Shown: positions 19,436-60,905 of the stretch, piece by piece
How positions within the stretch are numbered: the stretch's first letter is position 1
Layout of the letters: each line of letters starts with the position of its first letter
Made by a program: the position numbers and the translations under genes
The notes under the pieces: generated by a model
Told to the model about the DNA's origin: nothing
Databases searched by the model: none
Seen by the model: the letters and a program-made list of their open reading frames with translations, nothing else
NCBI GenBank assembly: GCA_028534125.1
Contig: CM052816.1
Span: 77,440,001-77,504,000 of the forward strand
DNA length: 64,000 bases
Direction: 5' to 3'
Source of the DNA: Lama glama
Lineage: Eukaryota

Positions 19436-20263
19436 CTGTCATTAGACAAACAAAAGCCACACGCACAATGACCATCTCCTCTTCCATGAAGCGGCACCTG
19501 GAAACACTTATGACTATGAAACTTGAGCATCTCCATGGAAGTCGTATTTACAAGCATGTGGACTCCAATTAATTCCAAGGTACCTAGTCCCAGTTCATCT
19601 TCAATAAACAAATGGCAGTGCTATAAACAGAGTGTGAGGAATAGCAGTGAGGCGAGAGGAAGGTGGCCCCATATCTTTCCCACTCTTTATTTACTTGGCT
19701 CTGTGGCTCCACTAGCAGAGCCTCAGGGAAACCATGTGCACAAAGACCACGGTCACACAGACGCTGTCCTCATGCTCATCAAATTCTGGTCTCACCGAAG
19801 AGAATCCTATTTTTTTGCTTTATTTTGTTTACTTCCCACGCAAATTTGCTTCTTTCCTTCCATTAGGAGAACCTGACAATAAAAACCCAACTGATAGACT
19901 AGTTTGGTTTTTCACTCACTTTGGCTGTCCTAGACGCGGACAGATCAAGGGATCCTCAATACTTTGACCATGACCTCAAAGGAGATTTGTTTCTGTATCT
20001 CCAAACCTTCTCACGTCATCGGAGATACCCAAAAGAATCACTTTAAGCTGAAGGCACTCAGTTCAGACCCGCATCTGATTCAGATCAGAGAGCATTTACT
20101 AGGTCCTCACTGCATGGCAGGGTTGGATATAGCAGTTTTTCTATTTGTCCAGGTGCAGTTGTAACAATGAAGCTTGTCTGGGCTCCCTTTAAATGGGATG
20201 ATGGGATAAAGAATGGATTTATGCCTTCTGAAGTCCTTGCCTGGAAAGCGTCACTATTATGAG

Positions 20264-20448
20264 TGTCCATTGGAATAAAAGATGTACAACCTAAGAGCTG
20301 AGAATTATGTTTTATTTGGTGGACTGGCGGAGGACTTAAGCCTAGGGGACAGTCCCTCAGAGCTATTGGGCTTAAGTCCTCAGCAAGTCCACCGAATAAA
20401 ACATAATTCTCAACTTGTAGGTCGTGCATTTTTATTTTTCAGTTGACA
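20264..20448. mobile_element. Fold-back (palindromic) element made of two inverted ERV1-type LTR 3' ends
   Basis: Arms of about 80 bp; core 20299-20342 matches the reverse complement of 20369-20412 at 41/44; TG...CA termini; flanks TGAG/TGAA; right arm is similar to the LTR end at 57165-57223. Confidence 0.85.
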
Positions 20449-20676
20449 TGAACAACATGGCTGGGAGCCACACATTCTGCCAGAGTTCAGTAACGTATGG
20501 AACCCACCCTCCCCTTGCTGCCGCCCTTGAGTGTGTAAATGTGCCCATCATTCTCGAGACCCTGTGAACAGGTTCACCTCCCTGCTTCCCCTCGCCCTCT
20601 CCTCCTCCACTGGATGGAGTAGACTGCTGTGTGAAGGTGTCCAATTAGCACTCATTAAACGATTAATCCGTCTTAC

Positions 20677-20777
20677 CCTAAATTCAAGAGTAATTTGAAA
20701 TGCCTGGTAAGAGTTCTTCAGAGGTTCAAAGGTTACATAGGAATGACCAAAGAACTGAGGATACTGTATAACAATAT
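20677..20777 (-). CDS. EGFLAM: EGFLAM exon 9 (start of laminin-G 1)
   Basis: ttcag|AT...AGG|gtaaga; translates (D)[33 protein letters not shown]; 101 nt. Confidence 0.96.
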
Positions 20778-40828: not shown

Positions 40829-40965
40829 GGGGAGGGTATAGCTCAGTGGTAGAGTGTGTGCTCAGCATGCACGAGGTCCTAGGTTCAATCCCCAGTAACT
40901 CCATTAGAAAGGTAAATAAACTTAATTACCCCCCAAACAAACAAACAACAACAAAATTTTTTAAA
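40829..40965 (+). mobile_element. tRNA-derived SINE, camelid Vic-1-like
   Basis: ggggagggtatagctcagtggtagag (A box)...gaggtcctaggttcaatcccc (B box), then aaataaacttaattaccccc and an (AAAC)n tail. Confidence 0.85.
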
Positions 40966-42419
40966 ACCTCCTTCATCTTGAAAAGTGGGCAGATGTCATA
41001 ATCTGTTTCACAGGGATTTCCTCAAAATAATCTTGAAAAGTAGAAAATACTACGTCTCAGACATTATTGTACCCATTTTAGAGATGAGGACACTGAGACC
41101 CAAGAGAGATTGTGACTTTCTCAAGAAGGTCTTACAGCAATGTAATAAGAGGACAGTTCTCCTGGCCCTTGGACCCAGATATGGCTGCCAGATTTGCTCT
41201 GGCCAAAGGTACAGTGTTGGGGAGCAGTGAGGAGCTTTCAAGGGTTGTGAGGACTTTATATTTATAGGCATTTGCCAAAAGAGGTAGCAGGTTGTACGGG
41301 AGTTGCTAGAAGGATTTTGGAAGAAGCTACTTCCAGTTCCTTCCTGAATGCTTCTGCCCCCTCCCCCAGGGATGCCACTGCCTCCAGCTCCCACCTGCTT
41401 CCCCTCTGCTCACTGCTGTAGCCAATTCAGGGCACTGCTACCAAATAGGAGACTTTATTAGTGACTGGGGGTAAAGGAAATCTATTTTGCGACTACATAT
41501 ATGAGAACATGTACCTAGGAGCCCTAGCATGCTGAGCTGGTCTCTGGGGAGACAGTCAGGCAATTAAAAACAAGGGCCCAAATCTCAAAGCAAAACTGAG
41601 CAAAAGCCAGATTCACAAATAGACACTTGGGTGACCAAGGGCATAAACAGACATGCACCCAGCAACAGCTGAACAAAGCAACGTCCGAGTAAGCAGGACG
41701 GTAGAGACAAGAAAAGTGAGATGGGGTGGCAGGGGAGGCGAGGAACGTATGGAATCAGGTTTGCTGAAGAAATTTGATTGATTGGGACCAGAGTGGGTTG
41801 TCTCAGCTCAGAGGAAGTTTCTGAAACTGTTGAAGAAAACGGATTGCGGGGAGAAGGGCATGACGAACACCAAACCCAAACGAAGTGTCTCTCACTCCTC
41901 TATACCCGATCTCTGAGGACCCGAGACCAGAAGCAGACTTACGAGGACCAGGGAGAAAATGTACTCTAATTTAGCATAGAAATGTTAAAGCTTATTCTAA
42001 TGATCAAGAAAGAACACAGGAGTAAAATGAGGGTTTGATTTGAAAGAGATGGGAAATGTCTCTCACTTCCTCACCTCCTTTAACAGCAAATGGTATTCTT
42101 CTGATCACTGAAATCTCTCTCAAAGGCCTCCTTTCCATCCTTATTGCCTTGAACTTAAACTCTCTGGGTTTGCTTTCTCCCTCCTTCCCTTCCTTCCTTC
42201 CTTCCTCCCTTGAAACTCTACTTTTTTCTTATTTGTGTCTCATTGCAATTCTGGGAGTTCAACTCTGCCTATGAATCTTGCCTGTAGAAAACCCACTCTC
42301 TGCCTGGTGGGTTTCCAGACTAGCTTTCTCACTGCATCTTCTCTTTGAATTTCCCAGACAGTGGCAGCAGCGAGCTACCCAGGCTCCATAGTCATCACAG
42401 GCCCTTAGCTTGTGAAGTC

Positions 42420-56809: not shown

Positions 56810-57225
56810 CACCAGCTGCTACTGCCACTCAGAATGCAGACAAGCAGGCAGCCTGGCCTCTGCAGCACCCCCAACTGAGAGGACTCAGAATGTGATAGGA
56901 CAAGATACTGGCCCTAGATAGATAGGTGCTTGTCAAAGGAATGATTTCTATGAACCCAGACATTTGCTCCCTCCCATACACAGAAAAGGGCTAAGTTCTT
57001 TAACTTGAGATGTCTGGTTTTCTTTAGTTAGCAATAATCTTTTAATGTTCTGACTACCTGGTCTTTGTTGTAAAACTCCTATACATCCTGGGTCCTCCCC
57101 TATCTTTTTGGAGCAGTCTCTCAGAGTAATCTGAGAGGCTGTAACCCCGGGCTTGCAGGGGTACAAGTCCTCAGAAATGTCTGCTGAATTAAACATAACT
57201 CTCAACTTTTAGGTTGTGCATTTAA
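56810..57225 (+). mobile_element. ERV1-type LTR fragment lying inside an L2 relic
   Basis: TATA-like cctatacatcc, internal hairpin cagtctctcaga/tctgagaggctg, poly(A) signal attaaa, U5-like acataactctcaacttttaggttgtgcattt; L2-like sequence on both sides. Confidence 0.7.
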
Positions 57226-60749: not shown

Positions 60750-60905
60750 GGGGATGGTAATAGCTCAAGCGGTAGAGCTAAGCATGCATGAGGTCCTGGG
60801 TTCAATCCCTTTTGCTAAGAATAAATAAATAAATAAATAAACCTAATTACCTACCCCCCACCCCAAATAAAGGTAATGGGAAAATAGGAAATTAAAAATT
60901 TAAAA
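60750..60905 (+). mobile_element. tRNA-derived SINE, camelid Vic-1-like, with a 24-bp TSD
   Basis: ggggatggtaatagctcaagcggtagag...gaggtcctgggttcaatccc, (TAAA)n, acctaattacc; AGAAGAAGTTATCACTCATATTTT repeated at 60726-60749 and 60906-60929. Confidence 0.9.

Follow-up and report, generated by a model that had tools for sequence, protein, structure and literature searches.

RESULTS

A palindromic element in an intron of EGFLAM

The window (the whole 64,000-nucleotide stretch of llama DNA analyzed here) carries exons of EGFLAM on its minus strand, recognizable from a Pfam EGF_Pikachurin match at about 21.5 kb (E = 5e-20) and laminin G matches at about 17.4 and 14.2 kb; three of the five stretches scanned gave Pfam matches. 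The EGF_Pikachurin match is about 1 kb to one side of a 185-bp element, and the laminin G exons are on its other side, which bears out the placement of this element within an EGFLAM intron by an earlier note made from the same DNA. A 101-nt exon has its donor 228 nt from the element, and the next acceptor is 828 nt away (Table 1). This is probably intron 9, the number given in the earlier note, which fits the human exon layout. When one exon was compared with the PDB, the matches were agrin and neurexin, and not pikachurin.

The element is short and non-coding and has terminal inverted repeats. Pairwise alignment of the left arm (20264-20342) with the right arm (20369-20448) gave 66 identities, 13 mismatches, and 1 gap, so the arms are identical in 66 of 80 columns, with 41/44 matches in the core and a 26-nt spacer. 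Among inverted repeats of the 64-kb window, 20264-20448 ranks top (65 nt at 86%), and its predicted DNA fold of -56.2 kcal/mol (z = -13.7) was equaled by none of 200 shuffled sequences. We reproduced the coordinates and counts that the earlier note had reported for the palindrome, including its core, its spacer length, its TG and CA ends, and its TGAG and TGAA flanks.

These flanks agree at three of four positions, an agreement of at least 3/4 having a chance of 0.051 under uniform base frequencies and 0.056 under those of the local sequence, and comparison of flank pairs at lengths 2 to 8 found them mostly matching only at length 4. No notable match was detected between the left and right flanks or between the flanks and the rest of the window (best E = 0.14); the flanks are outside any repeat detectable within the window, and there is therefore no in-window empty site. 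Window position 20250 is G, and the orthologous contigs have A in each of the four runs described below; this is either an allele or an error in the window assembly.

Table 1. Coordinates of the element, its parts, and associated features in the window
Feature	Position	Strand	Length	Basis or remark
Left candidate target-site duplication, TGAG	20260..20263	+	4 bp	3/4 match to right copy
Whole element	20264..20448		185 bp	TG start, CA end
Left arm	20264..20349	-		LTR U5 and distal R, antisense, from TG terminus inward to base of R hairpin; alignments to right arm, 57-kb copy, and L003
AATAAA poly(A) signal of left arm	20311..20316	-		Sense to EGFLAM pre-mRNA, inside predicted stem
Turn-around	20350..20366	+		Sense R-start hairpin: 5' arm 20350-20361, loop 20362-20365
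Point of missing 3' side of hairpin	20366..20367	+	16-17 nt missing	17-nt gap relative to 57-kb copy
Right arm	20367..20448	+		Distal R and U5, sense; poly(A) signal 20395-20400; CA end
Right candidate target-site duplication, TGAA	20449..20452	+	4 bp	3/4 match to left copy
Upstream EGFLAM exon	20677..20777	-	101 nt	AG/GT edges, open frame; gene identity from neighboring exons
Reference LTR copy, ordinary, decayed	56904..57223	+		TATA box 57080, intact R hairpin 57114-57141, U5 remnant

Both arms belong to a high-copy LTR family

The right arm is kin to the 3' part of the LTR copy at 57 kb (84.7% over 59 nt at 57165-57223, E = 3e-12), in agreement with the earlier note. Single-arm patterns also matched three metagenome contigs (L001, L002, and L003). 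L001 and L003 are two instances of a single mammal-like locus (95.6% identity across 906 nt) that carries an ordinary LTR end, and they are probably host DNA within metagenomes; L002 shares just a 23-mer and looks bacterial, and it was dropped. The LTR copy in L003 measures roughly 450 to 500 bp, its 5' end not being fixed. Both natural copies examined (2/2) have a TATA box, a hairpin with 12-nt arms 33 to 34 nt below it, a poly(A) region, and a terminus. Transcription starts about 30 nt below a TATA box in the standard promoter geometry; because of this and the spacing between TATA box and hairpin, we infer that R of the parent LTR begins a few bases before the hairpin. The 57-kb copy itself is without a clean 3' terminus, its poly(A) hexamer is altered, and, compared with the element, its hairpin and poly(A) region are separated by an insertion of 10 nt.

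To gauge abundance we used assembled contigs. Between 0.89 and 1.00 of the words of a 521-bp stretch were present in 20 of the 24 runs listed (five organisms, about 2 Gb of contigs each), and four of these 20 runs, from organisms A, B, D, and E (four close relatives), were used here. At 80% likeness, 856, 872, 857, and 724 contigs were placed on the element in the four runs. Depth relative to the orthologue peaked at about 860 to 1,050x over the left arm and about 1,140 to 1,330x over the right arm; this summed arm depth of roughly 860 to 1,330x is no copy number and is read as "high copy" only. The parent LTR is thus a high-copy family, and both arms are its R-U5 end. The family is presumably ERV1-like, as the earlier note also had it; a literature search by sequence motif returned no paper naming the parent LTR.

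The element holds two inverted R-U5 copies that meet near the inferred start of R

The earlier note had proposed two U5-type ends, and both termini indeed match the natural LTR 3' end, with homology stopping there on either side. Alignments to the LTR copies placed no U3 or primer-binding site within the element. Reading along the element, the orientation changes from antisense to sense near 20350-20352, and the 5' arm of the hairpin agrees with the 57-kb copy at 11/12 bases in the sense reading and 10/12 in the antisense reading. Among the loose ends at 20367-20374, the commonest in all four runs was the 16- to 17-nt stretch of ordinary copies that is missing here. The spacer is therefore the LTR's own R hairpin and not foreign sequence: its length of 26 nt stands, and its treatment as a piece separate from the arms does not. 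Given the absence of U3 and primer-binding site, the turn at the R hairpin, and the missing 16 to 17 nt, the element comprises two R-U5 copies in inverted orientation that meet at the start of R and have lost one side of the center. The missing nucleotides would have been lost by a deletion, either later or at joining.

A single locus was found to carry the palindrome in contigs of four close relatives

The earlier note had also raised the idea of a multi-copy, MITE-like non-autonomous family. In each of the four runs, an orthologous contig spans the left flank, the junction, and the right arm (to 20414 or 20396). No contig covered the right flank (20454-20503) in any of these runs, an observation to which we attach no weight in view of the filtering of records. 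Besides this orthologue, no arm-to-arm crossing was seen among the longest pieces shown (32 of 3,319, the longest of them about 90 nt), and neither joints nor letters between joints were tabulated in any of the four runs. At 20364-20365, other contigs contributed a depth of just 0.17 to 0.37% of that at the right-arm peak; the pieces listed for these positions are ordinary LTRs in sense orientation with gaps. With the orthologue as the sole arm-to-arm contig listed, these data do not support the idea. Contigs are better evidence of presence than of absence. They are interrupted at palindromes, and records resembling human DNA are filtered out; copies can thus be missed, and a few older or diverged siblings of the palindrome may exist. 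A family of any size sharing this junction is unlikely.

Pattern searches had a bearing here as well. The two-arm pattern had 0 matches in viral and metagenome contigs, weak evidence given that these hold almost no mammalian DNA. Single-arm patterns had 0 matches in viral contigs and in prokaryote genome contigs, and the hairpin pattern had 0 matches in viral contigs. A match of the junction pattern in an archaeal contig (L004) showed no further similarity and was put down to chance.

An amplified, non-autonomous palindromic family moved as a unit by an ERV integrase would account for the symmetric integrase-type ends and the possible duplication. Against it stand not only the contig data and pattern searches above but also the makeup of the element, which lacks a U3 promoter, a primer-binding site, and a coding region and so could not be recopied by the retroviral route, and which offers no excision route to a second copy. 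We consider such a family very improbable. The junction coincides with the R hairpin that the LTR already possesses, and finding the same central junction at another locus would therefore be insufficient proof of a family that spreads on its own.

Arm divergence and origins that do not involve a palindromic insertion

The arms are 16% apart (JC distance, 0.19), which falls within the copy-to-copy range of 7 to 15 other letters in about 80. The arms are therefore old, and they may or may not have been identical at birth. Decay has been uneven: about 10 changes are specific to the left arm versus 2 to the right arm (P = 0.04, post hoc), and differences number 3/44 in the inner part versus 11/36 in the outer part (P = 0.007, post hoc). 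The diverged outer part comprises 20264-20298 versus 20413-20448, with most changes on the left arm; for the outermost changes, the assignment to an arm relies more on the loose-end lines than on tabulated other letters. The unevenness may reflect conversion of the core, a difference in age between the arms, or chance. At the variant sites 20304/20407 (as far as listed), 20320/20391, and 20327/20384, the two arms share the majority state.

A difference in age between the arms, followed by conversion of the core, would be expected if two independent solo LTRs, inserted head to head near each other, had been joined at the hairpin by deletion or crossover, with the 3/4 flank match due to chance. 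The divergence between the arms equals that between copies, as this origin would predict, the hairpin offers 10/12 matching bases between opposite strands, and we roughly estimate that one head-to-head pair within 5 kb is to be expected per genome. Once a flank match is demanded, however, the expectation drops to about 0.06 per genome, a rough figure that assumes 1,300 copies at random in 2 Gb and that precedes any demand for a join at the hairpin. The majority states shared at matching variant sites, among those listed, also argue against two independent insertions, and we judge this origin to be quite unlikely.

Rearrangement of a single solo LTR after its insertion would dispense with two copies. 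Here a solo LTR with a 4-bp duplication would already have been in place; a nascent strand would fold back at the R hairpin, recopy U5, and rejoin the template at the LTR 5' terminus through TG/CA microhomology, such that inverted R-U5 replaces U3. Folding back is natural at the hairpin, alteration is greatest in the outer left arm, and the hairpin junction, the TG/CA ends, and the duplication are all explained without a short integrase substrate. Re-entry would, however, have to occur exactly at the far LTR terminus, some 350 bp off, through a few bases; no U3 remnant is present, and the left terminus aligns to U5 up to its last bases. The junction was moreover found in all four runs, with no unrearranged allele. 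On balance we regard this rearrangement as unlikely, though it deserves to be kept in view.

A proposed origin from a dead-end product of reverse transcription

The position of the junction at the LTR's own R hairpin points to a by-product of reverse transcription. Our preferred reading, to which we assign a probability of about 0.55, is that the element is a one-off fossil: a dead-end strong-stop product of an ERV that entered the chromosome by way of two U5 ends and afterward underwent asymmetric trimming of its center. Minus-strand strong-stop DNA, the copy of U5 and R, would end in the R-start hairpin. Either its 3' end would fold back on itself or a pair of strong-stop molecules, one copied from each packaged RNA, would anneal through the hairpin, and reverse transcriptase would then copy back to the U5 end. 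Integrase would use the resulting pair of U5 ends and leave a 4-bp duplication. The substrate might have been one duplex of about 200 bp, kinked at its mismatched center, or alternatively two hairpin molecules whose capped ends were later opened and joined. The near-perfect palindrome would then have lost 16 to 17 nt on one side of its center, at joining or later, and become stable. Insertion as one unit by an integrase appears most likely, although the duplication that suggests it matches at only 3/4 positions, which has a chance of 0.056. The finding of a single locus fits a rare accident.

Several of these steps have precedents. In vitro, strong-stop DNA of HIV-1 can prime itself at a 3' R hairpin, and the products are dead ends (PMC6088434); nucleocapsid suppresses the self-priming, and the same source describes the products as undetected in endogenous HIV-1 reactions (PMC6088434). 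For concerted integration in vitro, U5/U5 pairs are reported as the preferred substrate, and integration of a 355-bp DNA by its two ends together was not seen, its stiffness being the probable reason (PMC8742673). A straight 200-bp duplex would on this account be a poor substrate, so that either the central kink or the joining of two hairpin molecules after integration must be assumed. Integrases of the MLV type leave 4-bp duplications and that of another gammaretrovirus 5-bp ones (PMC3790719). Perfect palindromes in mice lose their central symmetry by small deletions, which made up 93% of 118 rearrangements (PMC8701086).

We also folded the antisense strand of the two natural copies, both of them decayed. 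In the 57-kb copy, a hairpin formed at all four assumed R starts, with pairing of the last base mostly low (0.03 to 0.18). In L003, the hairpin was the lowest-energy terminal structure at one of four assumed R starts. Neither copy thus gave a 3' end paired reliably enough for priming, a point against the proposed origin.

Among known systems, the element works like the self-primed strong-stop product. The cTAR-dependent HIV-1 product likewise consists of R-U5 only, has its hairpin turn at the 5' end of R, and is a dead end for strand transfer (PMC6088434). That product is a lentiviral one made in vitro and suppressed by nucleocapsid (PMC6088434); the element, unlike it, is germ line and chromosomal, would be an opened copy, and has two processed-looking U5 ends and a central deletion, so that the complete central hairpin is not kept (16 to 17 nt are missing). 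A small asymmetric deletion on one side of the center is also what center breakage leaves in mouse germ-line palindromes (PMC8701086), although the palindrome there was a 15.4-kb transgene and the one here would be a natural palindrome of about 200 bp whose breakage we infer.

With solo LTRs of its parent family, the element shares the sequence family, the TG and CA ends, and the possible 4-bp duplication. It is not an ordinary solo LTR, because it reads U5-R/R-U5 without U3 in place of U3-R-U5, and it is 185 bp long versus the roughly 450 to 500 bp seen in L003. Nor is it a MITE: like MITEs and DNA-transposon fold-back elements it is short and non-coding with long terminal inverted repeats, but these repeats come from an LTR and not from a transposase-bearing element, and one locus only was found. 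Camelid MITEs are reported to have duplications of 2, 3, 8, or 10 bp (PMC8605555), and the candidate duplication here is 4 bp. A prior entry for the element in the camelid repeat libraries (PMC8605555 supplements) or in Dfam or Repbase is possible. In a literature search from which subscription papers were mostly absent, we found no description of integrated self-primed or inverted-LTR products.

A broader version of the preferred reading holds that U5-R/R-U5 palindromes with integrase-type ends are a recurrent, overlooked insertion class across LTR families. Any LTR with an R-start hairpin could then yield a strong-stop DNA that primes on itself or on a sister molecule and enters the germ line by U5/U5 integration, where it would supply a long RNA stem from the outset; every copy would arise anew, with the same turn-around and with different central deletions and duplications. 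We offer this as a tentative extension and doubt that it is correct.

If the one-off origin is right, a product known as a test-tube dead end in HIV-1 arose in the course of an actual infection, and a pair of U5 ends served to integrate it into the DNA of a germ cell. This would bear on how strictly intasomes require a U3/U5 pair and long DNA, it would let an LTR give rise in a single step to a long hairpin within a transcript, and it would make a cheap genome-wide test possible, in which the number of palindromes per LTR family is compared with the strength of the R hairpin. The locus is single, old, and probably neutral, and its own biological weight is small.

Predicted RNA stem in the intron and a tRNA-like stretch

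Read as EGFLAM pre-mRNA, the element is predicted to fold at -92.9 kcal/mol (z = -14.9). The predicted stem hides the sense poly(A) signal, which is about 360 nt below the splice donor, and this pairing may make the signal harmless. Selection for pairing in the pre-mRNA was not supported: G-U pairs account for 2 of 13 mismatches on the pre-mRNA strand versus 6 on the opposite strand, whose predicted fold is also the more stable one (-105.2 versus -92.9 kcal/mol). Rfam returned three matches with E values of 0.13 to 0.55, all far below the gathering score, and hence no known RNA family; a mir-3174 candidate over the center of the element scored 23 bits against a gathering score of 100 and was rejected. 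Most probably the element is a neutral passenger whose presence gives the intron a long RNA stem.

Elsewhere in the window, ARAGORN called a tRNA-Leu(CAG) at 40832-40903. Further copies of part of this stretch occur at 60777-60809 (91% over 33 nt) and, in the opposite orientation, at 41510-41537, and it is therefore probably a tRNA-derived SINE.
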